This document shows, one piece after another, positions 4,419 through 50,741 of a DNA stretch of 64,000 nt. Position numbers and translations under genes: made by a program. How positions within the stretch are numbered: position 1 is the stretch's first letter; every line of letters starts with the position of its first letter. A model generated the notes under the pieces. That model made no database searches and was not told the DNA's origin. It was given only the letters and a program-made list of their open reading frames with translations. Source of the stretch: a virus; the IMG/VR virus record IMGVR_UViG_3300027782_000036. One strand, written 5' to 3'.

Positions 4419-4449
4419 ATATATAATAAAAAAACTTAGGAAATAAAAT

Positions 4450-5091
4450 ATGAAATACTTACTCGTTCAAAACAAAACAACTGTTCTTTTAGGACCTATT
4501 GAATGGCGTCCTAGATTTATTCAGTCAGAACTTAATGATCTGTTTGATGCTGGTGAAAAAGCAACGGCTTACACTATCTCACCCACAGAAACAGGTTACA
4601 TAGACTGTAATGATGGATTTGAAATATTTCCTATCGCATCATCAGAAGGTTCTGCTCATGATCCAATCTATGAACAACTTGCTGGTCCATTCTACACATA
4701 CGATAACAATGTAGCTTCAGAAGTTTACAATGTTCTCGATAGAGACATCTCTCATGTTAAAGAATCACTCAAACAAGTGGCAAAGTTAGAAAGACAACGT
4801 AAACAACTATTAGGAACTACCCTAAATATTGGTGGAACTGATGTGACATTAGCGACTGATGCTGATGAGTTGGCAAACTTTGTTTCTTTACTTGCTTCGA
4901 TTGGTGTAGATTCAGTTAATTGGAAATTCAAAGAAGGATTTATCACGTTGACTAAAGCAAATGTTCAAAGTATCGTTGATGCAATTCGTTCACACATTCA
5001 AACTCAATTTGATTGGGAAAAAACAATTGGTGAAACAATTGAAACTGCAACAGAATTATCTTCATTAAAATCTCTTACTATTACTGAGTAA
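4450..5091 (+). CDS. DUF4376-like tail fibre-associated protein
   Basis: C-terminal VNWKF...HIQTQFDWE pattern; located between fibre genes. Confidence 0.55.
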   Translation: MKYLLVQNKTTVLLGPIEWRPRFIQSELNDLFDAGEKATAYTISPTETGYIDCNDGFEIFPIASSEGSAHDPIYEQLAGPFYTYDNNVASEVYNVLDRDISHVKESLKQVAKLERQRKQLLGTTLNIGGTDVTLATDADELANFVSLLASIGVDSVNWKFKEGFITLTKANVQSIVDAIRSHIQTQFDWEKTIGETIETATELSSLKSLTITE

Positions 5092-5094
5092 TCA

Positions 5095-7203
5095 ATGGCA
5101 CAAAAAGTCGTCTTTATAACCACAATTGGTGCCGGTACATTCACGGTACCTGTTGATTTCGCATCACTAGTATCCGTCGAGGCTATTGGTGGTGGCGGAG
5201 GTGGTGGAAGTTCTACATCAAATGGTGGTGGTGGTGGAGGTGCATATGCAAAATCTACATCAGTTACAAGTTTAGTTGCGGGTGGTACAGCATATTATTC
5301 AGTAGGAATATTCGGCGTTGGTGGTAGTACCGGTACCGCAGGAGGCGATTCATGGTTCAATGCAGCCTCTAACGCTGCACCAACATTAAATACACAAGGT
5401 TGTTTAGCCAAAGGTGGCGGTGGTGGTGGCAATTCTGGAGGTTCTGGTGGTGCGTCAGCATCATGTATACCTATTACAGGAGCATTCTCTGGAGGAACTG
5501 GAGGCAATCCTGGAGGTACTTCAGCCGGTGGTGGCGGTGGTGCTGCAGGTCCAGGTGGTATCGGCGGTAATGGTAGCGCAGCTTTTGGAACCGGTCAAGG
5601 TAAAGGTGGCGGTGGCGGTGGTGCTTCATTATTAGCTGCAGGAAATAATGCTGGAACTGCTACATCGACAAACGGAGGTTCAGGTGGTAATGGTGGCAGT
5701 GGCACCGGTGGCGGTACTGCTGGTACTAATGCAATTAATGCTACTAGTGGCACTGCGGGAACTGGCGGTGGTGGTGGTGGTGGAGGCACATTTGGTGGTG
5801 ATGGCGGCGCAGGTGGCACAGGAAGTTATTGGACACAATCTTCTAATTCAGCAACAGCAGGTTCTGGTGGAGGTGGTGGTGGAGGCAATGGTGTTGGTGG
5901 ATTGTATGGTGGTGGCGGTTCAGGCAGTGGCACTAATGGCGCTCAAGGCATCATCGTATTCACATATAATGTTTCAGCAACTGGTCAAGGCAATATACCA
6001 TACCAACCAGGAACAGGATTTAGAACGACAGACCCTAATACAAATAATACACAAGATTTAGGTTCACGATATATCACAAAGGATTATTTACTCGATGTTT
6101 ATCCTAACATAGCATCAAGCACAGGTAACAGAACGGCACCAGGATTGTGGGGTTGGGGAGTTAATGATACAGGTCAATTAGGTAATGGTAACACTACATA
6201 TTATTCATCACCTGTTCAAGTTGGTTCATTAACTAATTGGAAGCAAGTAAGCAGTAATCAAAATACAGGCCAAGTTGCAGCAATCAAGACAGATGGTACA
6301 CTATGGACATGGGGGGTTGGGTTTGCTGGTGCATTAGGACTTAGTAATACTGTCTCTTATTCATCTCCTGTTCAAGTAGGGGCATTGACAAACTGGAAAC
6401 AAGTAGAAATGGGGGTTTATACTTGCATAGCTATTAAGACTGATGGTACGTTATGGGGATGGGGACGTAATTCTGCGTTTGGGCAAGTAGGTAATAATTC
6501 TTTAATAGATATATCATCACCTGTTCAAATTGGAGCATTGACAAATTGGAAACAAGTATCCACTACTAATAGTTATGCTGTTGCAGCAATCAAGACAGAT
6601 GGTACACTATGGACCTGGGGATATAATCTCAATGGACAATTAGGTGTTGGTAATATCACAAACTATTCAAGTCCGGTACAAGTAGGAACATTAACAACAT
6701 GGAAACAAGTAGTTTGTAAATCTGCAACATACGCTATAAAAACAGATGGTACATTATGGGCGTGGGGAGATAATTCAAGTGGACAGTTAGGTATTGGAAA
6801 TAGAACATCATATTCATCACCGGTTCAAGTTGGTTCATTGACAAATTGGAAACAACTTTATCCTGGAAGTTCATCTAATAGTATACATGCTATAAAAACA
6901 GATGGTACATTATGGGCATGGGGAGATAATAGTCTCGGTATACTCGGTATAAATAATACTAGAAACTATTCATCACCTGTTCAAGTAGGGGCATTAACTA
7001 ACTGGAAAGCAGTTGCTACAGGATCAGGTTATGCAACATTAGCACTAAAGACTGATGGAACTTTATGGGGTTGGGGAAATAATTCATATGGTCAAATAGG
7101 TTTAAATAACACAGCATATTTCTCATCACCAGTTCAAGTAGGGACATTAACTACGTGGAAAGCAGTATCAGGATCAATCGCAATTCAAGACGGATACATA
7201 TAA
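5095..7203 (+). CDS. Gly-rich domain plus RCC1/BLIP-II-like beta-propeller protein, paralog 2
   Basis: Same architecture and repeats as 2301..4418. Confidence 0.8.
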   Translation: MAQKVVFITTIGAGTFTVPVDFASLVSVEAIGGGGGGGSSTSNGGGGGGAYAKSTSVTSLVAGGTAYYSVGIFGVGGSTGTAGGDSWFNAASNAAPTLNTQGCLAKGGGGGGNSGGSGGASASCIPITGAFSGGTGGNPGGTSAGGGGGAAGPGGIGGNGSAAFGTGQGKGGGGGGASLLAAGNNAGTATSTNGGSGGNGGSGTGGGTAGTNAINATSGTAGTGGGGGGGGTFGGDGGAGGTGSYWTQSSNSATAGSGGGGGGGNGVGGLYGGGGSGSGTNGAQGIIVFTYNVSATGQGNIPYQPGTGFRTTDPNTNNTQDLGSRYITKDYLLDVYPNIASSTGNRTAPGLWGWGVNDTGQLGNGNTTYYSSPVQVGSLTNWKQVSSNQNTGQVAAIKTDGTLWTWGVGFAGALGLSNTVSYSSPVQVGALTNWKQVEMGVYTCIAIKTDGTLWGWGRNSAFGQVGNNSLIDISSPVQIGALTNWKQVSTTNSYAVAAIKTDGTLWTWGYNLNGQLGVGNITNYSSPVQVGTLTTWKQVVCKSATYAIKTDGTLWAWGDNSSGQLGIGNRTSYSSPVQVGSLTNWKQLYPGSSSNSIHAIKTDGTLWAWGDNSLGILGINNTRNYSSPVQVGALTNWKAVATGSGYATLALKTDGTLWGWGNNSYGQIGLNNTAYFSSPVQVGTLTTWKAVSGSIAIQDGYI

Positions 7204-7258
7204 ACTATGGCATATTTGAGACGCTGTTGCAATAAAAACACTAGCATAAGGAAAATAA

Positions 7259-10200
7259 ATGGCAACAATTAATAGAACCGTTGCATTTACATCAGGTACT
7301 AGCAGCTGGCAAGTTCCTACGGATTTTGTAAGTTTAGTTTCTATAGAGGCTATTGGTGCTGGTGGTGGATCTTCTACCGTAAATACTGGTAATGGTGGTG
7401 CTGGTGGTGGTGCTTATGCTAAAACAATTTCAGTCACAGGCTTTACAGTTGGTGCAACTCTTAATTATCAAGTAGGTGTTGGTGGTAGTGGAGCAATTGC
7501 CGCTACTGATACATGGGCTAACATAGCTTCAGCGGCCGCTCCTACATTAACAACTCAAGGTGTTTTAGCTAAAGCTGGTGGAAATTCAACCGGAGCATCT
7601 ATTACTCCTGGCGCCGGTGGATTAGCATCTGCCTCTGTAGGTACAACCAAATTTGATGGTGGTACAGGAGGAGCTGGATTTTCAACTGCAAATAACTCTG
7701 CTGCTGGTGGCGGCGGTGGTGCAGCAGGACCTAGTGGAGCTGGTGCAACTGGTGGTGCAGGTTCAGCAGCTGGCAACAGTGCAACTGGCGGCGGTGGTGG
7801 TGGTGCAAATGGAGGTACCGCTGGTACTGCCGGTGGTAGTGGTGGCGCTGGTGGATCTCCTGGTGGTGGAGCTGGTAATGCTGGAAATAGTAGTGCTGGT
7901 ACTACATCAACCATTTATACTATAGATGGAGTTGCATATGGTCCTGGTGGTGGCGGTGGTGGTGCCGGAACTAATGTTATAGGTATAAAAGGCACTGGAG
8001 GTGCTGGTGGTTCATATGGCGGTGGCGCTGGTGGAGGATCAGCTAACGTTTCAGGTGGCGGTGGTCTTATTTTAATTACTTATGTTTCAACTGTTGATCG
8101 TTACTGGGTAGGTGGTGCTGGAACTTGGTCTAGCACTAGTAGAACTAACTGGTCAGTTTCATCTGGAGGAGCATCCGGTGCTTTAGCTCCAACTAGTGAT
8201 GATGTTGTTTATTTTAATGGAAGTTCTGGATCGGGAACAGTTACATTAACAGGTGCCTTATATTGTAAAGGTTTAGTTACTACTGGATCATCGTTTACAT
8301 TTAGCAGCACAGGTACTATAGGTATTTATGGAAACCTAACTCTTTCAGCAACTACTGTATGGAGTGCTACAGGAGCCGTAACAATTGCTGGCACAGGTAC
8401 AATTTCTACAAACAGTATTTCTATGGCATCTCCTTTAACTATTGATGGTGTTGGAATTACAGCAACATTAGGTAGTAATTTTGTCACTACAGGAGCACTT
8501 ACTTTAACTAATGGTACTTTAAATGGAAGCACATTTAATGTATCCGCAAGCACATTCGCTTCTAGTAACAGCAATACTAGAACACTTACTATGGGTTCTG
8601 GCACATGGACATTATCTGGTACAGGCACTGTATGGAATACTGGTACTACAACAGGGCTTACATTTAGTTCTGGAACCACAAATATTATTTTGTCTGATAC
8701 TTCTACTACTGCAAGAACCTTTACACCTGGCTCCGGACAAACGTTTAATGAATTAACTATAGGTGGAACTACAGGAATATCCACTACAACTATTAGCGCT
8801 GGATGCACAATTACAACATTATCAAGCACTAAAACTGTAGCACACACTATTGTTATTACTGCTGGAACTACACTTACTTGCCCAAATTTTAATATTGATG
8901 GTACTTCTGGAAACATCTTTACTTTAAAATCGTCAAGCGCTTCAATAGCAACTTTATCTTCTGCAAACTCATTTACAACAAATTACACATATGTAACAAA
9001 CATAACACTATCTTCAGCAAACGGAACAGTTTCTTATGGACAACTTATTAGTTCAACTGGATGGCTTAATAATAATACTAGTTCAGTTCTAATTGTATTG
9101 TCTTCAGGCACTAGTTATTCTATTCCATCGAATTGGAATAATTCCAACAACACTATTCATCTTTTTGGTGGTGGTGGTGGCGGTGGTGGTGGTGCTACTT
9201 CTGGCACTGGCGCTGGCGGTGGCGGTGGTGGTGGAGGGTATACAAAAATTACTAATTTTGTATCGTCACCTTCAACGAGCATCACTTATGCAATAGGAGC
9301 GGCAGGTTCCGCAGGTTCTGGTACCGGTTCTGGCACTGCGGGTGGTACTGGTGGAACAACATCATGGAACTCTGGGGCATCTACAGCAGGTGGTGGTGGC
9401 GGAGGAGCTAGGGGTGGTACTGGCACTGGAGGCACTGCAGGTGTAGGCACTACATTTAACGGTGGAGCTGGCGGTTCAGGCCGATCAGGTGGAGGATCTA
9501 ACTACGGAGGTGGCGGCGGTGGTGCTGGCGGACCTCTAGGCGCTGGTGGTTCTGGTGGTAATGGCGTTGCAAGTCCAGGTTCTGGTGGTGGTAACGGAGG
9601 CGGTACTGCTGGTGGTACAGGAGCTACTGGTGGTAATAATGCACAAGGTTCTGGCGGTGGTGCTCTTTCTAGTGGTTCTGGATCTAATGGTGGCGGTGGT
9701 GGTCCAGCTAATGCCGGCTCAGGTGGAGGTGGTACCGGTGGAGATGGTATTGATATCTTAGATTATATTGGTGGCGGTGGCGGCGGTGGAGGTGGAGGCG
9801 GAGCCGCAGGTGGTGATGGTGGATCATACGGCGGTGGAGGCGGTGGAGGACCTAATTCTATTTTAGGTGGTGCTGCTGGAGGTGCTGGTAAAAGCGGTAT
9901 TATTATTATTAATTATTTTGCATTTGGCGCTGCCGATGCGTTTTCGGTTTCACCTTCTTCAGGTGCCATTGGAACTGTGGTTACAATATCTGGATCTTCA
10001 TTTAATTCAACATCAAGTGTAACTTTTGGTGGAGTATCAGCATCTTTTATAATTGTAGATGATTTTACAATTATCGCTACTGCACCTACACACAGTCTTG
10101 GTTCAAAAACAGTAGCAGTTACAAACTCGGCAGGTTCAGGAACAACATCTTCATTTACTTATCGAACACCAGGTAATTCAGGTTACAAATTCCCTATATT

Positions 10201-11383
10201 AAACTATGATGGTTCTGTATCAGGCACACTAGTAGACTTTGATGACATGTTTGTTCGAAAAGAATTATTCTTAGATGCTGGACTGTATGCGTGGGGATAT
10301 AATGCTAATGGTATGTTAGGTAATCAAAACACTACATATTACTCATCACCAGTTCAAGTAGGTACATTGACCAATTGGAAACAAGTAGGTGTTAGCCAAA
10401 GGCATACTGCAGCAGTTAAGACTGATGGATCATTATGGACATGGGGTGAAAATACACGTGGTGCATTAGGTGATGGTACTACCGTAGCTAAATCATCACC
10501 AGTTCAAGTAGGATCATCATACGATTGGTTACAAGTAACAGGTGGAGTTGATCAGGATGGTGGATTTGTTGGTTACACTTTAGCCACTAAGACAGATGGT
10601 ACTTTATGGAGTTGGGGTCATAATGCATATGGAGAGTTGGGTCTAAACAACAGAACATATTATTCATCACCAGTTCAAGTCGGTTCTTTAACTAATTGGA
10701 AGCAAGTTGTTGCGCCAAGTAATGGAGAACACGTTGCTGGAATTAAAACAGACGGTACATTATGGATGTGGGGCAGGAATGGCAGTGGCCAACTAGGTAA
10801 CGGTAATACGACAAATTATTCGTCACCAATTCAAATTGGAGCTTTAACTAATTGGAAACAAGTTGCTTGTGGTCAAGCTTTTTCTGCTGCTATCAAAACC
10901 GACGGAACATTATGGATGTGGGGTCAAAATGATCAAGGTCAACTAGGCAATGGTAATAGAACAAACTATCCATCACCAGTTCAAGTAGGTTCTTTAACTA
11001 ATTGGAAGCAAGTTGCTTGTGGGCTTCTATCAACAGCTGCTATTAAAACAGATGGTACATTATGGACATGGGGAAGTAATTCACGTGGTGCATTAGGTAA
11101 CGGTACTACCACATCTTATTCATCACCTATTCAAATTGGAGCTTTAACTAATTGGAAACAAGTTTCTGGCGGAGTTTATTTTTTTTCTATGGTTAAAACA
11201 GATGGAACTTTATGGGCTGTAGGTAGCAACACAGGAGATGGTGGTGTTAATACTGGAGTATTAGGTCAAAATAATCTCACAAACTATTCGTCACCCATTC
11301 AAGTTGGAGCATTAACTAATTGGAAACAAACAGAAACTGGAAGTTTTTCTTGTTTTGCTATATCTTCACCAGACTTGCCATAG
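7259..11383 (+). CDS. Large protein: two Gly-rich modules, beta-rich region, IPT/TIG-like domain, RCC1-like propeller; paralog 3
   Basis: SVSPSSGAIGTVVTISGSSF...FTY is IPT/TIG-like; C-terminal RCC1 repeats. Confidence 0.75.
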   Translation: MATINRTVAFTSGTSSWQVPTDFVSLVSIEAIGAGGGSSTVNTGNGGAGGGAYAKTISVTGFTVGATLNYQVGVGGSGAIAATDTWANIASAAAPTLTTQGVLAKAGGNSTGASITPGAGGLASASVGTTKFDGGTGGAGFSTANNSAAGGGGGAAGPSGAGATGGAGSAAGNSATGGGGGGANGGTAGTAGGSGGAGGSPGGGAGNAGNSSAGTTSTIYTIDGVAYGPGGGGGGAGTNVIGIKGTGGAGGSYGGGAGGGSANVSGGGGLILITYVSTVDRYWVGGAGTWSSTSRTNWSVSSGGASGALAPTSDDVVYFNGSSGSGTVTLTGALYCKGLVTTGSSFTFSSTGTIGIYGNLTLSATTVWSATGAVTIAGTGTISTNSISMASPLTIDGVGITATLGSNFVTTGALTLTNGTLNGSTFNVSASTFASSNSNTRTLTMGSGTWTLSGTGTVWNTGTTTGLTFSSGTTNIILSDTSTTARTFTPGSGQTFNELTIGGTTGISTTTISAGCTITTLSSTKTVAHTIVITAGTTLTCPNFNIDGTSGNIFTLKSSSASIATLSSANSFTTNYTYVTNITLSSANGTVSYGQLISSTGWLNNNTSSVLIVLSSGTSYSIPSNWNNSNNTIHLFGGGGGGGGGATSGTGAGGGGGGGGYTKITNFVSSPSTSITYAIGAAGSAGSGTGSGTAGGTGGTTSWNSGASTAGGGGGGARGGTGTGGTAGVGTTFNGGAGGSGRSGGGSNYGGGGGGAGGPLGAGGSGGNGVASPGSGGGNGGGTAGGTGATGGNNAQGSGGGALSSGSGSNGGGGGPANAGSGGGGTGGDGIDILDYIGGGGGGGGGGGAAGGDGGSYGGGGGGGPNSILGGAAGGAGKSGIIIINYFAFGAADAFSVSPSSGAIGTVVTISGSSFNSTSSVTFGGVSASFIIVDDFTIIATAPTHSLGSKTVAVTNSAGSGTTSSFTYRTPGNSGYKFPILNYDGSVSGTLVDFDDMFVRKELFLDAGLYAWGYNANGMLGNQNTTYYSSPVQVGTLTNWKQVGVSQRHTAAVKTDGSLWTWGENTRGALGDGTTVAKSSPVQVGSSYDWLQVTGGVDQDGGFVGYTLATKTDGTLWSWGHNAYGELGLNNRTYYSSPVQVGSLTNWKQVVAPSNGEHVAGIKTDGTLWMWGRNGSGQLGNGNTTNYSSPIQIGALTNWKQVACGQAFSAAIKTDGTLWMWGQNDQGQLGNGNRTNYPSPVQVGSLTNWKQVACGLLSTAAIKTDGTLWTWGSNSRGALGNGTTTSYSSPIQIGALTNWKQVSGGVYFFSMVKTDGTLWAVGSNTGDGGVNTGVLGQNNLTNYSSPIQVGALTNWKQTETGSFSCFAISSPDLP

Positions 11384-37779: not shown

Positions 37780-38396
37780 GTGACGATATTATAAGCATAG
37801 ACACGGGTGAATTGGCCAAGGTTAAACCAACGGCAACCAAAGTTGAAGTTCCATTATTTAAATTGGTATCAGAAGATAATCCTATTTTACGACAACCAAT
37901 TGAAAAATTTGATTTTGAAAATCCACCAGTTAATCCAAATGCGTTTGCTAGTTCGTTAGTTGAAACATGTAAAGCAAATAAAGGTTTAGGTTTATCTGCT
38001 AATCAATGTGGTTTTAAATATAGAGTATTCGTAGTTGGTTATGCTGAAAATTATGTTGCATATTTTAATCCAAAGATTACATGGGTATCTGATGTGTTAT
38101 CACATGCTGATGAAGGATGTTTATCATTCCCAAATTTATTCATAAAGATTACCAGACCAGAGTCAGTTGAAGTTGAGTATCAAGACTTTACAGGTGAAAC
38201 TAAAACAGCAAGATTTGGCGGTCTAACTGCCAGATGTATACTTCATGAGTTTGATCATATGAATGGTGTGGTATTTACCACTCAAGCTAAACCATTAGCA
38301 TTAAAAACTGGTCTTGACAAACGTATGAAACTTGTGAGAAAATATGAAAAGTATTCAAAACTATTACAAAAACAAGTGAAGAAATTAGGTAAATAA
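37776..38396 (+). CDS. def: Peptide deformylase
   Basis: GLGLSANQ, EGCLS and HEFDH motifs. Confidence 0.93.
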   Translation: MSDDIISIDTGELAKVKPTATKVEVPLFKLVSEDNPILRQPIEKFDFENPPVNPNAFASSLVETCKANKGLGLSANQCGFKYRVFVVGYAENYVAYFNPKITWVSDVLSHADEGCLSFPNLFIKITRPESVEVEYQDFTGETKTARFGGLTARCILHEFDHMNGVVFTTQAKPLALKTGLDKRMKLVRKYEKYSKLLQKQVKKLGK

Positions 38397-39661
38397 TGGC
38401 AACACCAATAGAATATGTAGATAAACAGTGGGAAGATTGGCAGAAGAATAATGATCCTGCCACGTTCAACCACATCGATGAAGAAGAACTTAAAGTCATT
38501 TTAACAAAAGATTTGACTTATGCTTCTCAAATGGATGTGCGTGAATACACACTCTATCAAAAGTGGTGTGAAATTCAAGAGAGATATCCCACTCAAGAAG
38601 TATCTACATTGTTTGGTACAGAACGTCAAATGGTTTATCCAGACCAAGAAAAACTAATTAAAAAAGTTAAATCAAACTTTTGGAATCCAGAGAATCCAGA
38701 TGATTTCGATAAGTTAGATATTGAATTGGTATTGTCAAATGGTGAAGGTGCTGAAGAATGGAATGCTATTCGAACATTCACTTCTACCATGAAGAACAAT
38801 TCAAACATTGGTAGAAATCTATTTTACATTATTAAAGATAAAGCTACTGGTAAGTATCTTGGTGTAATCTGTATTTCATCAGACTTCCTTGATTTGACAC
38901 CTAGAGATAATGCCATCGGTTGGCCAAGAGATATTAAGACACAAGGTAACATGATTAACCATACAGCAATCGGTTCTACTATTGTGCCTCTCCAGCCGCT
39001 TGGATACAATTATATGGGCGGTAAACTGTTAGCTTTGTTATGTCTATCTGATACTGTTCAACAAGATTGGCAAAACAAATATGGTGATGTTCTAGTTGGT
39101 GTCACCACAACATCACTTTATGGTAAAACTAAAGCGGGTGGACTATCACAATATGATGGTCTTGAACATTGGAATGCCATGGGTTTTACTTCTGGTTCAG
39201 TTGCTTTTGATCCATCTAAGAAGACTATGAAAATGGTATTTGAATGGATTAAAGAAAATCATACTAAGAAATACTTTGAATGGTGGGAAGCAAAGAACAC
39301 ACAAGGCTTACCATTAAAACGAGACCATAAGAATAGATCATTACATTTTGCTTATGCCAAACTTAAAATACCAAAAAATCTAATTCGATGTGAACATGCA
39401 CGTGGTATCTATTTTTCACCATTATATAATAATTCTTTTGAATTTTTAAGAAAAGAAATTGGTAAAGATGTTCTTGTTAAGAGTTTTGATACTAGTGTAA
39501 AAGGATTGACTGATATATGGAAAACAAAATATGCTAAAGGTCGTATATCAATGTTGAAGAAGAAGAATACCGTTTCTAAAGAATCACTTTTCTATGATGA
39601 TTTAATTTATCTCACATGGGAAGAAACAAAAGCCAAATATTTACCACAAGTTGGTAGATAA
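38396..39661 (+). CDS. DUF4338-like protein, paralog A
   Basis: QPLGYNYMGGKLLALLC, TTSLYG, SQYDGL; shared with 62608..63720. Confidence 0.65.
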   Translation: MATPIEYVDKQWEDWQKNNDPATFNHIDEEELKVILTKDLTYASQMDVREYTLYQKWCEIQERYPTQEVSTLFGTERQMVYPDQEKLIKKVKSNFWNPENPDDFDKLDIELVLSNGEGAEEWNAIRTFTSTMKNNSNIGRNLFYIIKDKATGKYLGVICISSDFLDLTPRDNAIGWPRDIKTQGNMINHTAIGSTIVPLQPLGYNYMGGKLLALLCLSDTVQQDWQNKYGDVLVGVTTTSLYGKTKAGGLSQYDGLEHWNAMGFTSGSVAFDPSKKTMKMVFEWIKENHTKKYFEWWEAKNTQGLPLKRDHKNRSLHFAYAKLKIPKNLIRCEHARGIYFSPLYNNSFEFLRKEIGKDVLVKSFDTSVKGLTDIWKTKYAKGRISMLKKKNTVSKESLFYDDLIYLTWEETKAKYLPQVGR

Positions 39662-39666
39662 TACGC

Positions 39667-39695
39667 TTGACATATCAACTAGATAGTGATATGAT
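39667..39695 (+). promoter_or_regulatory. Sigma70-type early promoter
   Basis: TTGACA-17 nt-TATGAT with TGn extended -10. Confidence 0.75.
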
Positions 39696-39749
39696 TATAA
39701 AACTAATCAATACGATTAGGAATTTTGTTATTTTATAGGAGTTTTACAA

Positions 39750-40025
39750 ATGGTTAAATTGAGTGCGAAACAACGTATGTTGAATTATCTCATGAAAAAA
39801 TCTGGTTACAATACTTTCACAACAGCACAAGCTAGACGCTTATTTGGTGTGCAAAATATTGCAGCTCGTATTTCTGAACTTCGTCAAGAAGGTTATGCAG
39901 TATATCTCAATACTTACAAGCGTGGCGACGGCAGTCGTGTAAATGGTTATCGTTTAGGTACACCATCTAAAGCGTTTCGTAAGTATTTCAAAGAGATTGG
40001 CGTCAGAGCTAAGTCCGTAGCTTAA
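39750..40025 (+). CDS. Small winged-HTH DNA-binding protein
   Basis: TTAQARRLFGVQNIAARISELRQEGY. Confidence 0.7.
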   Translation: MVKLSAKQRMLNYLMKKSGYNTFTTAQARRLFGVQNIAARISELRQEGYAVYLNTYKRGDGSRVNGYRLGTPSKAFRKYFKEIGVRAKSVA

Positions 40026-40040
40026 TCGTCAATGCTGTGG

Positions 40041-40068
40041 TGAGGGGTCGCAAAGGCCCCTCATTTTT
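40041..40068 (+). terminator. Intrinsic terminator
   Basis: TGAGGGGTC-gcaaa-GGCCCCTCA followed by TTTTT. Confidence 0.85.
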
Positions 40069-45806: not shown

Positions 45807-46292
45807 ATGGTATCACCATATCGCTCATTATTACCTTCAACCGTTGGATTTGATAGACTCTTTTCAACACTTGACGAATTCGATACATTATTTTTAGAAG
45901 GTAAAAAAACTCAAACTTATCCACCTTACAATATCGTCAAACTTGATGACACCGATTATGCAATAGAAATCGCTGTTGCTGGTTTTGGTATGTCAGATTT
46001 AGATATAACAACAGAAGGTAATAAACTAACTATTACTGGATCAACTAAAGAAACAGATGGTAAAGAATATTTACATCGAGGTATTGGTACAAGAGATTTT
46101 ACCCATACATTCACTTTAGCGGACACTGTTATTGTTAAATCCGCTAATATTGTAAATGGACTTCTAGTAATTATTTTAGAAAATGTTATTCCAGAAGAAA
46201 AGAAACCACGAAAGATTCAAATTGGTGAAAGTATAACACCATTGACTGGTATTGATCTTGTCAGACAATTGTATTCTGAACGTAGTGACTAA
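45807..46292 (+). CDS. Small heat-shock protein (Hsp20/IbpA-like)
   Basis: VGFDRLF, YPPYNI, YLHRGI, NGLL, PEEKKPRKI. Confidence 0.95.
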   Translation: MVSPYRSLLPSTVGFDRLFSTLDEFDTLFLEGKKTQTYPPYNIVKLDDTDYAIEIAVAGFGMSDLDITTEGNKLTITGSTKETDGKEYLHRGIGTRDFTHTFTLADTVIVKSANIVNGLLVIILENVIPEEKKPRKIQIGESITPLTGIDLVRQLYSERSD

Positions 46293-46313: not shown

Positions 46314-46355
46314 TTGACATTTCTTGGTTGTTTGTGTATAATAGTATCATAAATA
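46314..46355 (+). promoter_or_regulatory. Tandem sigma70 and late promoters upstream of bS21
   Basis: TTGACA(46314)-17 nt-TATAAT(46337), then CATAAATA(46348). Confidence 0.75.
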
Positions 46356-46387
46356 AATCTTTTGACGCAACAACCAAGGAATTTAAC

Positions 46388-46654
46388 ATAGCTAAGCCAG
46401 ATAAATTTGTAAAGAAACCTAGTAGGAACGATATATCAGGATCACTGACACCCGTGCCTGATGGTCCATATGGTTTTGATAACGCATTTAGAAAGTTTAG
46501 AAAAAAGATTGATGAATCTGGTTTATTACGTGAAATTCAAGAACGTATGCATTATGAAAAGCCAACCACTGTTCGTAAACAAAAGAAAAGTGCAGCTAAG
46601 AAACGTTGGCAAAGAGAATTAGCTAAAACAAAAATACCTAAAAAGATGTATTAA
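46388..46654 (+). CDS. rpsU: Ribosomal protein bS21 homolog (start uncertain; AUA at 46388 proposed)
   Basis: AFRKFRKK...GLLREIQERMHYEKPT...RK.KK.AAKKR signature. Confidence 0.85.
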   Translation: MAKPDKFVKKPSRNDISGSLTPVPDGPYGFDNAFRKFRKKIDESGLLREIQERMHYEKPTTVRKQKKSAAKKRWQRELAKTKIPKKMY

Positions 46655-46658
46655 ACGC

Positions 46659-46687
46659 TTGACAAACAGAATGATTTATTGTATAAT
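46659..46687 (+). promoter_or_regulatory. Sigma70-type early promoter
   Basis: Perfect TTGACA-17 nt-TATAAT. Confidence 0.85.
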
Positions 46688-46712: not shown

Positions 46713-46778
46713 ATGGGTAACCGAGACAAGAAAAAAGAATCTAAAGGTAGACCAAAGAAAGATAAACTACCTAAGTAA
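46713..46778 (+). CDS. Putative 21-aa basic peptide MGNRDKKKESKGRPKKDKLPK
   Basis: First ORF after a strong promoter; weak GAGAG RBS. Confidence 0.4.
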   Translation: MGNRDKKKESKGRPKKDKLPK

Positions 46779-46786
46779 CCAGTTAT

Positions 46787-46854
46787 GCGGTGGGTTGTAG
46801 AACAGTATAGGTGTCCAACTTATACCTTTGGTGCGAATCCAAATCACCGCTCCA
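46787..46854 (+). tRNA. Atypical 68-nt tRNA-like RNA with Gly identity (possible UCC anticodon) and reduced D arm
   Basis: GCGGTGG/TCACCGC acceptor stem, T73, encoded CCA; T arm TTTGG-TGCGAAT-CCAAA; 7-bp stem closing loop TGTCCAA. Confidence 0.65.
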
Positions 46855-46871: not shown

Positions 46872-47120
46872 ATGAATATCAAACCATTGCGTGATAACAT
46901 TATCATCGTTAAAGAAGAAAAAAATCTAACGACCGCTTCCGGTATTATTCTCAAATCAACAGACGATGCGGACAAAGCAAGAGTTGTTGCTATAGGTCCA
47001 GAAGTCGAAGACGTTCAAATTGACAATGTAGTTATAGTTAATTGGAACAAAGCTCAAATGATTGGTGATGATCAATATAGAGTTAATATTTCAGACGTAA
47101 TTGGTGTATTAGAAGACTAA
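46872..47120 (+). CDS. groES: Co-chaperonin GroES-like protein
   Basis: IKPLRDNIII, TTASGIIL, VVAIGP, DVIGV. Confidence 0.9.
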   Translation: MNIKPLRDNIIIVKEEKNLTTASGIILKSTDDADKARVVAIGPEVEDVQIDNVVIVNWNKAQMIGDDQYRVNISDVIGVLED

Positions 47121-47155: not shown

Positions 47156-48796
47156 CTATGATATTGTAGTATAACCCCAATAAACAGTTTGAGATGAACC
47201 GCTAGTGTTGTTAATTCCAAAATCAAATCTATTGGTAGTCGAACTTGCAGACACACTGCTACGAACTATGGTGTTTGCAGTGCCTATAAACTGATTAGGT
47301 ATACTAGTAAAGTCAATGGGAGTTCCACCACCATTGTAGACCCAAGCATAATGTTGACCCACAACAGGTACATTGCTATTGGTAACTGTGGCAATGGCAT
47401 TGTATGCTATAATTCCATTAGGTATATTACCACTAACCCATAGTTCATAGGTACCACTTCCTGGAACTGTAAAGCTATAAGTACCTGATCCTATAGTAAC
47501 AGTCCATGTGCCTGTAGTTTTTGTAACTGCTGATGCAGACGTTGGGCCTGTGGCACCTGTTAATCCAGTAGAACCTGAAGCGCCTTGAGTTCCTGTAGCT
47601 CCATTAGTACCTGCAACTCCAGTAGATCCACTTGCACCTTGGAAACCTGAAGCTCCTCGAATACCTGTAGAACCATTTACTCCGCTAGCCCCATTAACAC
47701 CAGTTGCTCCATTGGTTCCAGTTGTACCTGTAGCTCCGTTGTTTCCAGCAACACCACTAGCTCCTTGTATTCCACTTGCTCCGTTAATACCGGTAGCTCC
47801 ATTACTTCCAGAAGTACCAATTGCGCCTGATGCACCTTGAATACCAGTTGCACCGTTTACACCCGTAGCACCATTTGTTCCGTTATTTCCTGGCGATCCA
47901 GTTGCACCATTGACACCTATTATTCCACTAGCACCAGCAACACCGGACGCACCTTGTTGACCTTGAGTTCCACTAGCACCTATAACTCCAGTGGCACCAG
48001 CATCTCCTCCACCTGGACCGGTTGCTCCAGCAGGACCAGTAGCACCATTACCTCCACCACCTTGTGCATTTTTTGGTGTCCATTTACCTAGTGTTGAATC
48101 AAATGTTAATACTTGATCGTTTGATGGACTTTTAACACTACTATAATCTGTATCACCTAAATCATATAGCCAATAGGAACCACTACCTGGTCCTGCAATT
48201 GATACTTTACCCAACCACTGTTCAAGATATTTTAATTTGTCTTGAATTGCTTTAATATTAGGTTCAGTCTTTTTAGCAATTGGATCGGTGAAAGTATTTG
48301 TATAACTTTCTTGTTTGGTAATTTTTTCAGAAGTTACTTCGACAATATCTTTAGGTTTAGAAGGTTCAACAACAACTTCTTCTTTGACAACAGGAACTTC
48401 AATAAATTCTTCTTGTTTTTGTTCGATGATTTCAATTTTATCATCAAGTTGTTTTTTAGCTTGTGAAAGTTCTTTGAAGAAATCGCCTAATGTAACAGGT
48501 GGTTCTGATTCTTCTTTGATTTCTGGAATATAACCTTCAACAGGTATTTCTTCTATTTCTTTTTTGAGGTTAGCTAATTCAGATAAAAAGCTTGTTGTGC
48601 TTTTAGCATTTTCTTGAAGATCAACTCCAATATTCTCTAAAAACTCTTTGTTCTTTTTATCTTCTTCTTCTAATTTGACCTTTTTGCCTTCTTTTACTAC
48701 ATTGGCAAATTCAGCCATCAAAGATGCTAAATCATTTTGAGGTTGCACGATATGTTCCATCCCAATTATCTGGTTTTCCTTCTTCAAGTCTTTCAA
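47156..48796 (-). CDS. Acidic N-terminal region plus collagen-like G-X-Y repeat protein with C-terminal beta domain (start may be 48760 or 48718)
   Basis: Long GAT/GAS G-X-Y run. Confidence 0.75.
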   Translation of the reverse strand: MKDLKKENQIIGMEHIVQPQNDLASLMAEFANVVKEGKKVKLEEEDKKNKEFLENIGVDLQENAKSTTSFLSELANLKKEIEEIPVEGYIPEIKEESEPPVTLGDFFKELSQAKKQLDDKIEIIEQKQEEFIEVPVVKEEVVVEPSKPKDIVEVTSEKITKQESYTNTFTDPIAKKTEPNIKAIQDKLKYLEQWLGKVSIAGPGSGSYWLYDLGDTDYSSVKSPSNDQVLTFDSTLGKWTPKNAQGGGGNGATGPAGATGPGGGDAGATGVIGASGTQGQQGASGVAGASGIIGVNGATGSPGNNGTNGATGVNGATGIQGASGAIGTSGSNGATGINGASGIQGASGVAGNNGATGTTGTNGATGVNGASGVNGSTGIRGASGFQGASGSTGVAGTNGATGTQGASGSTGLTGATGPTSASAVTKTTGTWTVTIGSGTYSFTVPGSGTYELWVSGNIPNGIIAYNAIATVTNSNVPVVGQHYAWVYNGGGTPIDFTSIPNQFIGTANTIVRSSVSASSTTNRFDFGINNTSGSSQTVYWGYTTIS

Positions 48797-50741
48797 TCAT
48801 TTTTTCATAATATTCATGGATGGTAACTTCTGGATCATTCAATAATGTTTGTGCAACAAATATTGCTTTCTTCCAATCACCATTATAATATAAATTTAAA
48901 AATTCTTTATGACCAATTATTCTTGTTTTGCCTATAGTATATATCTTGACGCCAATTGTCTTACCTTTAACCGCTATATTGTCTAATTCAATAACATTAT
49001 AGTTATCTTTAACTAATTCGGCAGTTTTTTCACCTAATACTATTTTAACACCGTATGGTTTAGATTGACCTTCTAACCTACTTGCCAAATTGACAGAATC
49101 ACCGAGGCAAGTATAGTCGAAACGTTGTCTAGAACCCATGTTACCAACAACAACACTGCCAGTATTAATACCAAGTCCCATACCAAACGGAGGGATACCT
49201 TCTTTAGAAATTTCTTTATTAAATCCATCTAAATCTCCTAACATTTCTAGACCAGTTTTTACTGCATTGAGAGCGTGATCTTTATCATCTAATGGTGCAT
49301 TCCAAAAAGCCATCTGTGCGTCACCAATATATTTATCGAGTGTTCCATTATTATCTAAAATCTTGGAAGTCATGGCAGTCATATATCGATTCATGATTTG
49401 TGTTAAACCTTGAACATCTTTACCATAGTGTTCTGATATGGTTGTAAAACCACGAACATCTGTAAACATAATACTCAATTCTTTTGTTTCACCACCAAGT
49501 CTCAATAACTCTGGATTCTTTTGTAACTTTTCAACAAGTGCTGGTGAAAGATATGTTCCAAATTGTTTTTTGATTTGTAATTTTTGGTTTAGTTCACTTA
49601 TAAACTTAACAGTATATGCATGAGCATACACAACAGCCAAACTGAAAATAGGAAACACACAATCCACAAGATAGCTGAAATGAGTAAAGGTATAATAAGA
49701 ACAATAATATAAACCACTAATAAGAAAAACAATAGGGACAATAGCATATTTCCACCTCGATAAGAAGATAATTAAAATTGATAATAATACTACTACAAGA
49801 ATTTCTGCACCATCTAACCAATCAGGTCGAGATATACTTGTACCACTCGTTAAAGTATCTAGGACTACAGCTTGTAAATAGTGTGGATACTGTTCACCTC
49901 TAGCTGTTGCAATTGGGTTATTGAGACCACGAGCCGTAAGTCCAACGATAACGATACCACCATCAAATGATTTAGGCATCTCCACAAGTGAATGTTCAAT
50001 TGGTTTACTTGACCAGTCGACCCAAATTCTACCAATTGTATCTGTTGATATTTTGGCAAATTTAGGTATTCTAACTGCTTCGATTCCTACATCAGTAGAT
50101 TTAACTTGAAAACTTGGGTCTCCAACTGCAACACGTAAAGTTTCAAGAGATATACTTGGGTAGAGTAGGTCGTTACTTGATACAACCATAGGTATACGGC
50201 GAACAACACCATCAATTTCAGGTAAGACATTTACGACTCCAACACCAGCTGCCTTATCATTTAGTAGTTGGATGTTAGGTTGAATACCTGGATAATCAAT
50301 GGTAAAATTATGTGCAGGTGTTCCAATTTCCGAAACTCCTGGTCTAAATGCTAAAGTTTTTTGTTTCTCTGGTGCGGCTATCTGAGGTAAGATGACAGGG
50401 TGTCTAGCAAGACTATCAGCCAAGTTGGCATCACGTCCAAAGCGATCATTGTCAGGCATAAAGATGTTAAAAACAACAAGACCAGCATTACGTTGGTAAA
50501 GGTCCTCGATAATGTTTGCATATTGGCTCCTAGGAAATGGAAATTGACCAAGTCTTTCGATTGATTTATCATCAATGTTTACCACATGAACCTGCTTGGA
50601 AATAGTTTGTGGTTTACTTGTTATGAGTGTATCAAAATATCGTAGTCTAACAGATTGAACAAATGATGGATCGAATGTTCTAACACCAATTAATAATGCT
50701 AATGTAAGTAATGCAAACCATGGACTAAGTAACCTCTTCAT
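48732..50741 (-). CDS. CHASE2-domain class III adenylate cyclase
   Basis: VVNIDDKSIERLGQFPFPR and DGVVRRIP (CHASE2); TM helices; FTDVRGFT, DKYIGDAQM, DYTCLGDSVNLASRLE. Confidence 0.93.
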   Translation of the reverse strand: MKRLLSPWFALLTLALLIGVRTFDPSFVQSVRLRYFDTLITSKPQTISKQVHVVNIDDKSIERLGQFPFPRSQYANIIEDLYQRNAGLVVFNIFMPDNDRFGRDANLADSLARHPVILPQIAAPEKQKTLAFRPGVSEIGTPAHNFTIDYPGIQPNIQLLNDKAAGVGVVNVLPEIDGVVRRIPMVVSSNDLLYPSISLETLRVAVGDPSFQVKSTDVGIEAVRIPKFAKISTDTIGRIWVDWSSKPIEHSLVEMPKSFDGGIVIVGLTARGLNNPIATARGEQYPHYLQAVVLDTLTSGTSISRPDWLDGAEILVVVLLSILIIFLSRWKYAIVPIVFLISGLYYCSYYTFTHFSYLVDCVFPIFSLAVVYAHAYTVKFISELNQKLQIKKQFGTYLSPALVEKLQKNPELLRLGGETKELSIMFTDVRGFTTISEHYGKDVQGLTQIMNRYMTAMTSKILDNNGTLDKYIGDAQMAFWNAPLDDKDHALNAVKTGLEMLGDLDGFNKEISKEGIPPFGMGLGINTGSVVVGNMGSRQRFDYTCLGDSVNLASRLEGQSKPYGVKIVLGEKTAELVKDNYNVIELDNIAVKGKTIGVKIYTIGKTRIIGHKEFLNLYYNGDWKKAIFVAQTLLNDPEVTIHEYYEKMIERLEEGKPDNWDGTYRATSK

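Follow-up and report, generated by a model that had tools for sequence, protein, structure and literature searches.

The locus and the small RNA

The window is the whole 64-kb stretch of viral DNA that we analysed. On its plus strand, an Hsp20 small heat-shock protein gene (45807-46292; Pfam HSP20, 1.2e-16) precedes the gene for a phage ribosomal protein bS21 (46328-46654; Pfam Ribosomal_S21, 2.3e-13), the upstream neighbour of the element studied here. Next comes a predicted sigma-70-type early promoter (46659-46687, plus strand). It consists of TTGACA and TATAAT with a 17-nt spacer and matches the consensus at 12 of 12 positions. A possible 21-codon lysine-rich ORF (46714-46778, plus strand) lies between this promoter and the element, and it is kept in two near-identical contigs with one synonymous change. 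The element itself occupies 46787-46854 on the plus strand and reads as a mini tRNA-Gly(UCC) of 68 nt. It is followed on the same strand by a GroES-like co-chaperonin gene (46872-47120; Pfam Cpn10, 1.4e-7; phrog_3188, 3.5e-13). This gene is probably co-transcribed, since its start lies 17 nt past the CCA end. Judging from the sequence, transcripts from the promoter would cover the small ORF, the mini tRNA, and the GroES-like gene.

All parts of the mini tRNA are on the plus strand. The acceptor stem has 7 bp (GCGGTGG at 46787-46793 with TCACCGC at 46844-46850), including a G7-U66 wobble. The D region comprises 11 nt, GTTGTAGAACA; it consists of a 3-bp hairpin, GUU-GUAG-AAC (46794-46803), and then A46804. 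The anticodon stem pairs GTATAGG (46805-46811) with CTTATAC (46819-46825) over 7 bp. Its loop is UGUCCAA (46812-46818), with UCC at 46814-46816 and G33 at 46813. The variable region is a single nucleotide, C46826. The T stem (TTTGG at 46827-46831, CCAAA at 46839-46843) closes the loop UGCGAAU (46832-46838), which presents G55. The discriminator U73 lies at 46851 and the encoded CCA at 46852-46854. The preliminary description had parsed the D region, stems, loops, G33, U73, and CCA of 46787-46854 in this same way, and the sequence agrees with it exactly. It had also called the D arm reduced. This is right for the 11 nt, to which we add that the region is also a 3-bp covarying hairpin.

The window copy conserves several canonical parts: the 7-bp acceptor, the 5-bp T stem, the 7-nt T loop, and the discriminator with CCA. 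The missing invariants are U8 with the 8-9 linker, G18G19 (the D loop is GUAG), U33, and U55. Likewise, the anticodon stem has 7 bp instead of the canonical 5, and the variable region 1 nt instead of 4-5.

As had been predicted, ARAGORN in its standard mode misses the element and reports zero tRNA across the 64-kb window. In Rfam, the mini tRNA has no match at the gathering score or at E <= 10. The mitochondrial mode of ARAGORN returns an mtRNA-Gly(tcc) with identical coordinates. The DNA is AT-rich, and this mode makes 16 calls in the 64-kb window, most of them surely false. The fold that it proposes has a D stem of 4 bp with a 3-nt loop and an anticodon stem of 5 bp. We rejected it because the covariation fits another one, in which the D hairpin has 3 bp, the anticodon stem 7-8 bp, and the variable region 1 nt. 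The folding energy of the window mini tRNA is -21.6 kcal/mol, with z = -2.4 against shuffles (RNAfold). We also considered the tRNA-like domain of a tmRNA. Such domains have the G3-U70 alanine identity, a split or extended body, and a tag reading frame. This candidate was rejected, since the element carries G3-C70 in a closed molecule of 68 nt, and ARAGORN finds no tmRNA in the window.

A family of shrunken glycine tRNAs

On the comparative sequence evidence, the window element is genuine and conserved. It belongs to a family of shrunken glycine tRNAs that is widespread but has gone unannotated. Related phage loci were fetched using the window Hsp20 gene. The family comprises at least about 70 distinct relatives on at least about 106 IMG/VR phage loci. 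Their carriers are aquatic T4-like phages, relatives of pelagimyophages, and the RNAs measure 64-71 nt. The parts found family-wide are the 7-bp acceptor, the 5-bp T stem, a UGCRAAU T loop, the 3-bp D hairpin, the 7-8 bp anticodon stem, and the encoded CCA. The tertiary core (8-9 linker, G18, variable loop, position 26) is lost throughout. The T-stem pairs 50-64 and 51-63 are mainly A-U or U-A. The window copy scores 80.5 bits with the family model R2.

The D-hairpin stem covaries, with GUU/AAC, GGU/ACC, GCU/AGC, GUG/CAC, and AGU/ACU all present. Over 70 distinct rows, pairing is kept in 95% of cells and 20 of the 23 pairs show double (compensatory) changes. The covariation score is 0.713, versus 0.176 in shuffles (0 of 500 reach 0.713) and at most 0.097 with the partners slid. 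RNAalifold, run independently, recovers the structure and gives 17 compensatory pairs out of 23. Compensatory changes are present in all four helices among the at least about 70 distinct relatives.

Scans with looser patterns agree with this result. When the pattern was anchored solely on the D motif and the anticodon loop, 83 distinct matches were listed. The complete GCG...UGCRAAU...CGC-U-CCA architecture, which the pattern did not require, appears in 51 of these 83, far above chance. An identity-agnostic architecture scan yields Gly in 50 of 56 listed matches, and other isotypes never recur. Among the matches listed from scans leaving the loop unconstrained, every loop has the anticodon UCC or CCC.

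The rejection of the window element by the standard finders and Rfam could point to a decaying tRNA-Gly pseudogene or a chance cloverleaf, and the over-calling of the ARAGORN mitochondrial mode in an AT-rich window goes in the same direction. Nevertheless, every helix carries compensatory changes among the at least about 70 distinct relatives, and the identity elements and the T loop are invariant. We reject this explanation as hardly credible. The element had been described as maintained rather than decayed, and a homolog search and covariation had been suggested to verify it. Both are positive, and the compensatory changes strongly support that view. A recent deletion of an ordinary tRNA, also contemplated at first, does not fit, because the compact form is common to divergent lineages and intact canonical tRNA-Gly genes lie alongside. 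The near-identical contigs L001 and L002 carry the window mini tRNA without variation, so this pair is uninformative. The virus record nearest to the window does not extend over this region.

In bacterial genomes, minis are essentially absent among the matches listed. A blastn search of the window, type-C, and commonest copies against 50,697 deposited phage genomes, which is a weak search at 68-70 nt, returned no relative. The models R1 and R2 have no match in HTVC008M, Melnitz, S-SSM6b, S-SSM4, DSL-LC03, ACG-2014d, S-CAM9, S-PRM1, and the E. coli jumbo phage 121Q. Their match in S-SSM7 is an ordinary tRNA-Gly(UCC) and was rejected. The type-C relatives reach 24-27 bits with the Rfam tRNA model, below its 29-bit cut-off. 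An earlier description of phage mini tRNAs like these did not turn up in a literature search that was not exhaustive. Because a whole tRNA-derived family escapes ARAGORN and Rfam, and hence the published annotations, the tRNA inventories of phages are incomplete.

Glycine identity and decoding features

The identity elements of E. coli glycyl-tRNA synthetase (GlyRS) are G1-C72, C2-G71, G3-C70, U73, C35, and C36. The window copy has this full bacterial set, as the preliminary description claimed. The set is invariant or nearly so in the family, though the searches did not impose it. We infer that the host GlyRS would glycylate the mini tRNA. The family is a natural experiment on how much of a tRNA can go while the features read by the synthetase stay. 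It could be useful for work on tRNA structure and function and for engineering orthogonal carriers.

The mini tRNA might be a compact tRNA-Gly isoacceptor that decodes GGA/GGG on the ribosome. In a variant of this reading, the mini tRNA might be kept because its altered anticodon loop and body evade host tRNA-targeting nucleases or a dependence on modification; such escape has been proposed for other phage tRNAs. The anticodon is always that of glycine, and the tandem mini pairs, which carry differing anticodons (CCC and UCC), resemble an isoacceptor set. The 3-bp D stem and the 7-bp anticodon stem together give 10 stacked layers, as in a normal tRNA, which preserves the distance from anticodon to CCA. 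U54-A58 and C56 of the T loop, together with the conserved AG of the D loop, could still make an elbow. In addition, many Patescibacteria have a tRNA-Gly(GCC) that combines G55 with an AG-type D loop. It is probably the species that translates, and G55 by itself is therefore not proof. Members also sit within tRNA arrays, and at locus L210 the canonical Gly(GCC) is present while the canonical UCC is absent from the fetched 10 kb.

Other observations argue against decoding. G33 takes the place of the near-universal U33 in the window copy, as it does in 30 of 56 members. The CCC types are marked by a pyrimidine, C37, and the 32-38 pair is always Watson-Crick and covaries. The tertiary core is absent, and we know of no bacterial translation system that uses such a body. 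G33, the Watson-Crick 32-38 pair, the missing core, and G55 would make the mini tRNA a poor decoding substrate. Contigs with 15-24 tRNAs encode canonical tRNA-Gly(UCC) and (GCC) plus a mini, and the minis often lie only 5-7 nt from the canonical tRNA-Gly(UCC). Going by this gene content, the minis do not replace a decoder, since canonical tRNA-Gly genes coexist with them. Finally, GGA and GGG make up just 22% of the Gly codons of the window and the fibre genes use mostly GGT. The earlier idea of a supply for the Gly-rich fibre genes is disfavoured by these values. Overall, we judge a role in decoding to be unlikely.

Predicted expression of the family members

About half of the family members have a promoter similar to the one at the window mini tRNA, and its end usually lies about 8 nt ahead of G1. 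Two loci, L052 and L114, are stand-alone promoter-RNA-terminator units. Both observations speak for the minis as genes in their own right. In the window, the mini tRNA would be transcribed from the early promoter at 46659-46687 and released by RNase P and 3' trimming.

These steps could also be the function itself. As a processing or stability signal, the element would let RNase P and 3' trimming set the ends and the half-life of the downstream mRNA (GroES in the window) or of tRNA arrays. The position of the minis is consistent with it: they often begin about 8 nt past the -10 box and head transcripts into tRNAs or coding genes, the window copy lies just ahead of the GroES-like gene (17 nt), and a related type-B element forms the 5' leader of gp45 or S21 mRNAs. 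However, the stand-alone L052 and L114, with their own terminators, are left unexplained. So are the invariant G1-C72, C2-G71, G3-C70, U73, and NCC loop, because RNase P needs shape and not glycine identity. A signal of this kind seems to us quite improbable.

A DUF4338 GNAT gene as candidate partner

The window encodes a DUF4338/DruA-like GNAT protein of 421 aa (38396-39661, plus strand; Pfam PF14236, 2.9e-20). The gene is on the same strand as the mini tRNA and 7.1 kb upstream of it, and in window-like loci this distance is 7-9 kb. In at least about 30 loci (kinship among them ignored), the DUF4338 gene ends 28-76 nt upstream of the mini on the same strand. This adjacency may partly reflect the conserved T4-like gene order in one clade. 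DUF4338 is encoded elsewhere on all five large mini-bearing contigs tested. Mosig and HTVC008M, which have a type-B tRNA-Gly-like gene, carry it too. Five complete related genomes without any such RNA also lack DUF4338. The DUF4338-bearing loci L013, L017, and L018 show no mini within the fetched flanks. For 121Q there is no PF14236 match, and the same family search gave none in the control genomes either. A short DUF4338-like paralog between cyanophage gp44 and gp62 was rejected as a partner; it is not accompanied by minis.

The AF2 model of the window DUF4338 protein has a pLDDT of 85.8 and contains a GNAT core. Among PDB structures, Mu Mom (8bv8_B) matches it best, with Z 11.4 and rmsd 3.9 over 168 aligned residues. 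Other GNATs follow at Z <= 10.2 with about 140-148 aligned, a lead for Mom of about one Z unit. Foldseek relates the model to Mom with a probability of 1.00 and E = 4.4e-3. Sequence and profile searches of DUF4338 against the PDB gave nothing meaningful, with no sequence-level similarity to Mom. DUF4338 has been called a GNAT domain (PMC10853773). By its Pfam name, it is the DruA component of the Druantia defence system.

Phage Mu Mom takes its glycine from Gly-tRNA(Gly) and transfers it to adenine in DNA (Silva et al. 2026, PMC13219725). It appears to read chiefly the 3' acceptor end and the amino acid (PMC13219725). The proposed window system would share with it a phage GNAT, and the co-substrate of Mom, Gly-tRNA(Gly), fits the glycine identity set of the mini tRNA. 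Mom differs in being about 230 aa and in using the host tRNA-Gly, and DUF4338 has extra N- and C-terminal parts. For Mom, whose catalytic residues are R111 and S124, we know of neither a dedicated tRNA nor a coupling with a tRNA gene.

Proposed role

The analogy with Mom leads us to propose, tentatively and at somewhat short of an even chance, that the mini tRNA is a dedicated non-ribosomal glycyl carrier for a phage Mom-like DUF4338 enzyme. A glycyl donor is the best-supported of the three functions offered in the preliminary description, and it now gains a candidate partner enzyme. In this reading, the element is a small RNA gene that functions, and it is a paralog of phage tRNA-Gly with a minimised structure. 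Once charged, it would supply a private pool of activated glycine to the DUF4338 GNAT (38396-39661). Following the example of Mu Mom, this enzyme would take glycine off the 3' end of Gly-tRNA(Gly) and move it to a target. The likeliest target would be the adenine N6 in phage DNA, where the modification might evade restriction. A two-part system acting on DNA or another macromolecule, with a Mom-like DUF4338 and a core-less mini tRNA-Gly that is charged by the host and unused in translation, is possible, although we would sooner bet against it.

Since ordinary host tRNA-Gly suffices for Mom, such an enzyme can do without a dedicated carrier. Moreover, if the acceptor end alone mattered, three features would be hard to explain. 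These are the tightly conserved anticodon arm, the kept length of the D and anticodon stems (3+7 versus 4+1+5 layers), and the tandem CCC and UCC pairs.

Another reading is a decoy or sponge. Here the RNA would resemble tRNA-Gly, accept glycine, and absorb a host factor directed against tRNA-Gly, or it would titrate GlyRS. The candidate targets are AtaT2/TacT-type GNAT toxins, which acetylate Gly-tRNA(Gly), or an anticodon nuclease. The acceptor end, U73, and the NCC loop are conserved while the decoding features are not, and the tandem minis would mimic two isoacceptors. Early promoters suit counter-defence, and the DruA relationship of DUF4338 gives the neighbourhood a flavour of conflict. 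Nevertheless, the data point to no specific target, and we know of no defence in the likely hosts that targets tRNA-Gly. A pair of enzyme and co-substrate accounts more simply for the tight linkage with a phage GNAT. We consider a decoy improbable.

If the glycyl carrier and its Mom-like DUF4338 partner are confirmed, tRNA-dependent DNA hypermodification would reach beyond Mu into phages that abound in marine water and freshwater, cultured pelagiphages among them. The DruA-type domains of Druantia would acquire a testable biochemical activity. With the two-part system, a tRNA encoded by a virus would for the first time be dedicated to a non-ribosomal reaction, and no natural four-helix tRNA body that a bacterial-type synthetase uses would be smaller.

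Comparison with known tRNAs

In Staphylococcus, non-proteinogenic tRNA-Gly species are the glycyl donors for pentaglycine synthesis by FemXAB. A phage carrier would parallel these species, which evade EF-Tu and are kept for FemXAB. The proposed logic is the same, a glycyl carrier outside translation for a GNAT-fold transferase. Our genome scan gave Staphylococcus tRNA-Gly genes that we take to be the non-proteinogenic species. They share with the minis the glycine identity set, the UCC anticodon, and the coexistence with an ordinary tRNA-Gly. They also share the UGCAAAU T loop (with G55), a D loop without G18G19, and the string UAGAAC. Some minis have exactly the Staphylococcus anticodon loop CUUCCCG, with C37 and the C32-G38 pair. 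The window copy shows the Staphylococcus-type replacement of T-Psi-C by UGY, with T loop UGCGAAU and D loop GUAG. The earlier comparison with the staphylococcal GUGC tRNA-Gly was apt, given the T loop, D loop, and UAGAAC in common. On the other hand, the Staphylococcus species have the full tRNA size of 75 nt; their D stem counts 4 bp, their anticodon stem 5 bp, and their variable loop 5 nt. The minis, unlike them, measure 64-71 nt, are core-less and phage-encoded, and in the window copy present G33. The hosts of these phages are probably Gram-negative marine or freshwater bacteria, which do not have glycine cross-bridges. In the part of the window ORFs that was scanned, none was seen to be a Fem gene.

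The canonical tRNA-Gly(UCC) neighbours of the minis (L053, L062, L068, L015) score 40-46 bits with R2, a clear sign of paralogy. Both have the same acceptor identity, an encoded CCA, and a D stem of the type GUU(C)/(G)AAC. Compared with them, the minis are 8 nt shorter and lack U8, G18, U33, U55, and the variable loop. Their anticodon stem has 7-8 bp, and their Rfam tRNA score is sub-threshold or absent.

Metazoan mitochondrial tRNAs, for example tRNA-Ser(AGY), also present a shrunken D arm, a longer anticodon stem, and lost D/T contacts. The minis differ from them in belonging to an unrelated lineage and setting and in their 7-nt T loop with the T-loop motif, G+C-rich acceptor, and covarying D hairpin.

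The type-B tRNA-Gly(ACC)-like genes of pelagimyophages (7779-7852 in the Mosig record; 91140-91210 in HTVC008M) share with the minis the phage group, the co-occurrence with DUF4338, the GCGG...CCGC-U-CCA acceptor, and an early promoter directly ahead. They also have an xCC loop, pairable positions 32-38 and 33-37, and GC at T-loop positions 55-56. In contrast, their length is 74 nt, their D arm is larger, their anticodon stem has 5 bp, and their variable loop has 4 nt. Their anticodon is ACC and their T loop GGCAGUA or AGCGUUA. The Mosig type-B copy scores 35 bits with R2.

Sequence and detection of the element

The element occupies positions 46787-46854 (+), and its 68 bases were read from the sequence. 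The acceptor stem is GCGGUGG/UCACCGC, with a D region of 11 nt. An anticodon stem of 7 bp (GUAUAGG/CUUAUAC) carries the loop UGUCCAA, which holds G33 and the anticodon UCC. The variable region is 1 nt, the T stem is UUUGG/CCAAA with the loop UGCGAAU, and U73 is followed by a CCA encoded in the DNA. This agrees exactly, part by part, with the parse in the preliminary description. The fold (-21.6 kcal/mol) is somewhat better than in shuffled sequences (z = -2.4).

Standard ARAGORN returned zero tRNAs in the entire window, a miss that had been expected. Its mitochondrial mode calls mtRNA-Gly(tcc) at the element, which means little by itself because the same mode makes 16 calls in the window. An Rfam search of a 401-nt slice holding the element gave no match, even at E ≤ 10. 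Among the relatives of the element, type-C members score 24-27 bits against the Rfam tRNA model, under the 29-bit cut-off, and type-A members obtain no score. Therefore, annotation pipelines would miss this family.

A family of shortened tRNA-Gly-like RNAs

An identical copy of the element in two IMG/VR contigs is uninformative. The covariance model R1, built from the element, recovered canonical tRNA-Gly(UCC) genes and an unannotated tRNA-Gly-like element in phage Mosig. Four pattern scans of IMG/VR and a second covariance model (R2) gathered at least about 70 different sequences, 64-71 nt long, from at least about 106 loci. We call these RNAs minis. No account of phage mini tRNAs of this kind appeared in the literature searched, Rfam or the deposited phage genomes.

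Twenty sequences were aligned with plain MAFFT and folded with RNAalifold. The structure has a 7-bp acceptor stem, a D hairpin of 3 bp whose loop is 4-5 nt long, an 8-bp anticodon helix including the 32-38 pair, a variable region of 1-2 nt and a 5-bp T stem. Compensatory changes occur in 17 of its 23 pairs. With 70 distinct rows, fitted to the model and including some canonical tRNA-Gly, 95% of cells are paired and double changes are seen in 20/23 pairs. Covariation in this alignment scores 0.713; shuffles give 0.176, with none of 500 attaining 0.713, and sliding the partners gives at most 0.097.

Glycine identity is retained throughout. An anchored scan fixed only TAGAAC plus GGTGTCCAA, leaving the acceptor, T loop, U73 and CCA free. 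Among the matches listed were 51 true members, all with GCG...CGC-U-CCA and a UGCRAAU T loop. Scans with the anticodon unconstrained gave UCC or CCC only, among the matches listed. Likewise, in an identity-agnostic search for the architecture across all DNA collected, 50 of 56 matches were glycine and no other isotype recurred; these loci were gathered by glycine-like patterns, yet they hold hundreds of other tRNAs. The preliminary description had proposed a search for homologs and covariation, and both were found. Its view that the element is maintained rather than decayed is borne out by the compensatory changes across relatives and the invariant identity set. The element is almost certainly a real, selected RNA gene derived from tRNA-Gly.

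Gene neighbourhood in the window

The window belongs to a T4-like myophage of the pelagimyophage/cyanomyophage group. Its closest cultured relatives are the Pelagibacter phages Mosig and HTVC008M and the Methylophilales phage Melnitz. The genes identified are gp46, a DUF4338 protein, gp45, gp44, gp62 and RegA. Next come an epimerase, Hsp20, ribosomal protein bS21, the element and a GroES-like gene that begins 17 nt past the CCA. The opposite strand holds a collagen-like fibre gene and a CHASE2-adenylate/guanylate cyclase (48732-50741), the latter common to Melnitz and HTVC008M. The gp43 polymerase and a DnaB-like helicase lie farther along.

A promoter matching the TTGACA-17-TATAAT consensus perfectly (46659-46687) lies upstream of the element, with a possible 21-codon ORF between them. 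A second perfect match at 46314-46342 overlaps the annotated TTG start of bS21 (46328), so the true start is probably farther downstream. In the contig behind locus L012 the mini and the GroES-like gene are identical to those of the window, but Hsp20 is just 77% identical, which points to mosaic exchange on a scale of a few hundred bases.

Four very Gly-rich genes (16-24% Gly) lie in 2301-11383 and 47156-48796; one is collagen-repeat and tail-fibre-like. The idea that the element supplies such fibre genes is argued against by their codons, mostly GGT, and by the share of GGA+GGG in the window (22% of Gly codons).

Architecture of the minis and decoding

G1-C72, C2-G71, G3-C70, U73, C35 and C36 are invariant in the family, and they are all that bacterial GlyRS is known to read. 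A decoy role, which the preliminary description also considered, seems improbable. U8, position 9, G18, position 26 and the variable loop, all parts of the tertiary core, are gone. The D and anticodon limb has 3+7 stacked pairs where a normal tRNA has 4+1+5, an arrangement that would preserve the length of the limb. An altered elbow is plausible, since U54, C56 and A58 persist in the T loop, as does AG in the D loop.

The anticodon loops break decoder rules. Of 56 members, 30 have UGUCCAA, with G33, nine have CUCCCCG or AUCCCCU (C37), six have AUUCCAU and two have CUUCCCG. Positions 32 and 38 are Watson-Crick partners in every case and covary (UA, AU, CG). Moreover, in contigs that have 15-24 tRNAs, a mini is found alongside both canonical Gly(UCC) and canonical Gly(GCC), so the mini does not substitute for an absent decoder. 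On the other side, the conserved anticodon limb and the CCC/UCC pairs suggest that the anticodon end still matters, for GlyRS or the ribosome. We regard a decoding tRNA as unlikely.

Minis occur in four contexts. Some have a canonical tRNA-Gly(UCC) or (GCC) 5-7 nt away and often stand first in a tRNA array, directly behind a promoter. Others are tandem minis with different anticodons (CCC + UCC) and no canonical tRNA nearby, or stand-alone promoter-RNA-terminator units (L052 and L114). In the fourth context, as in the window, the mini precedes a coding gene. A role as processing signal appears slightly less probable than that of a decoy.

A DUF4338 GNAT as candidate partner

At the tandem loci, the RNA genes lie between a ~426-aa DUF4338/DruA gene (PF14236) and a ~800-aa gene of phrog_459, annotated 'peptidase' and CobT-like. 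A tblastn search of all 107 mini loci placed DUF4338 at 43 of them, on the same strand in every case; these linkage counts ignore shared ancestry. At ~30 loci the DUF4338 gene ends 28-76 nt ahead of the first mini; in the window and in loci of the L197 type, it is 7-9 kb upstream of the mini. For five large contigs the fetched locus is free of DUF4338, and all five have a full-length copy at another site (72-78% identity). Mosig and HTVC008M each carry DUF4338 and a related tRNA-Gly(ACC)-like gene. Neither RNA nor DUF4338 was found in five complete relatives, four cyanophages and Melnitz.

A short DUF4338-like paralog (~370-380 aa) lies between gp44 and gp62 in cyanophages S-SSM7, S-CAM9 and S-PRM1, and also occurs in large mini-bearing contigs (second matches, G002-G006). 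Cyanophages in which it is the only DUF4338-like gene have no mini. Just past the HTVC008M DUF4338 gene, where relatives have a mini, GTAGAACATAGG (L485:1765-1800) resembles the D hairpin of the minis and the first part of their anticodon stem. It may be a remnant of a mini.

DUF4338 has been described as a GNAT domain (PMC10853773). The window gene (38396-39661) encodes a DruA-like GNAT whose best model match is Mom of phage Mu. Its AlphaFold model (28 homologs; pLDDT 85.8, pTM 0.82) has an N-terminal helix-turn-helix with a beta wing, assigned from secondary structure only, and then the GNAT core. Foldseek ranked Mom (8bv8_B) second (probability 1.00, E = 4.4e-3). VIA-align ranked it first (Z 11.4, rmsd 3.9, 168 residues aligned), against Z ≤ 10.2 and about 140-148 residues for generic GNATs. 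Minis are genomically coupled with a gene for a GNAT that has Mom as its nearest relative of solved structure. Beginning no more than 10 nt past the window gene, the stretch 39669-40025 holds a strong promoter-like element and an ORF of 91 codons whose product looks like a small winged-helix protein; a terminator-like hairpin (~40036-40066) comes next. Close relatives (L013, L017, L018) share this layout.

Mom moves glycine from Gly-tRNA(Gly) onto adenine N6 of dsDNA (Silva et al. 2026, PMC13219725). It uses all three E. coli tRNA-Gly isoacceptors, not Gly-tRNA(Ala), and probably recognises the 3' acceptor end and the amino acid; that paper makes no mention of a phage-encoded tRNA.

The best-supported mechanism, which we hold tentatively, is that the mini feeds glycine to the Mom-like DUF4338 enzyme of the phage. 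The mini would be expressed early and processed, the host GlyRS would charge it, and exclusion from the ribosome would keep it from use in translation. The charged RNA would then supply glycine for the putative activity of the enzyme on its presumed target. The non-ribosomal glycyl donor of the preliminary description thereby gains a genomically coupled candidate partner, but the structural margin of Mom over generic GNATs is small. Also against this reading, the linkage is uncorrected for common ancestry, the two genes are 7 kb apart in the window, and a private tRNA is unnecessary for Mom. The conserved anticodon limb and the tandem CCC + UCC minis count against it as well.

The type-B tRNA-Gly-like family

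A second family, type B, consists of 74-nt genes with anticodon ACC, T loop GGCAGUA or AGCGUUA, and acceptor GCGG...CCGC-U-CCA. Six pairs show compensatory changes. The Mosig gene (L009:4228-4301; MT647606.1 7779-7852, minus strand) is annotated as hypothetical protein Mosig_000011. The HTVC008M gene is at L485:5641-5714 (91140-91210 of the genome), and about 30 IMG/VR loci (L050-L095) hold further copies. Type-B genes start directly behind a TTGACA-17-TATATT promoter and end 10-25 nt ahead of gp45 (S21 in HTVC008M). Their anticodon matches GGT, the dominant Gly codon of the window.

Other tRNAs with G55

A scan of genomes for the T-arm and acceptor pattern gave at least 120 loci. Most matches listed are full-length tRNA-Gly genes (74-76 nt) with G55, from Staphylococcus, Deinococcus, Intestinimonas, Agromyces and many Patescibacteria; among them, minis are essentially absent from bacterial genomes. 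The Staphylococcus genes share the oddities of the minis: their anticodon loop is CUUCCCG, their T loop is UGCAAAU, and their D arm includes UAGAAC and lacks GG. These features extend the staphylococcal parallel drawn earlier from the T loop. We take the genes recovered to encode the non-proteinogenic tRNAs on which FemXAB draws. In the Patescibacteria genes, G55 goes with normal UUGCCAA anticodon loops. These are probably translating tRNA-Gly(GCC), so a non-ribosomal role does not follow from G55 alone.

The UGCAAAU T loop, with G55, is also present in full-size tRNA-Cys(GCA) genes of phages and in some genes of Met/Ile type (CAU anticodon), whose D loops likewise lack GG. These genes occur at many viral loci (e.g. 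L099, L101, L107, L132, L137), and their sequences suggest a wider class of phage tRNAs with a rewired elbow. Two 88-nt stretches in Deinococcus (L334, L335) combine a tRNA-Gly-type acceptor and G55 with a long internal insertion. Bacillota MAGs (L340, L397) hold 70-nt tRNA-Gly-like genes with a 5-nt CCCAA loop.
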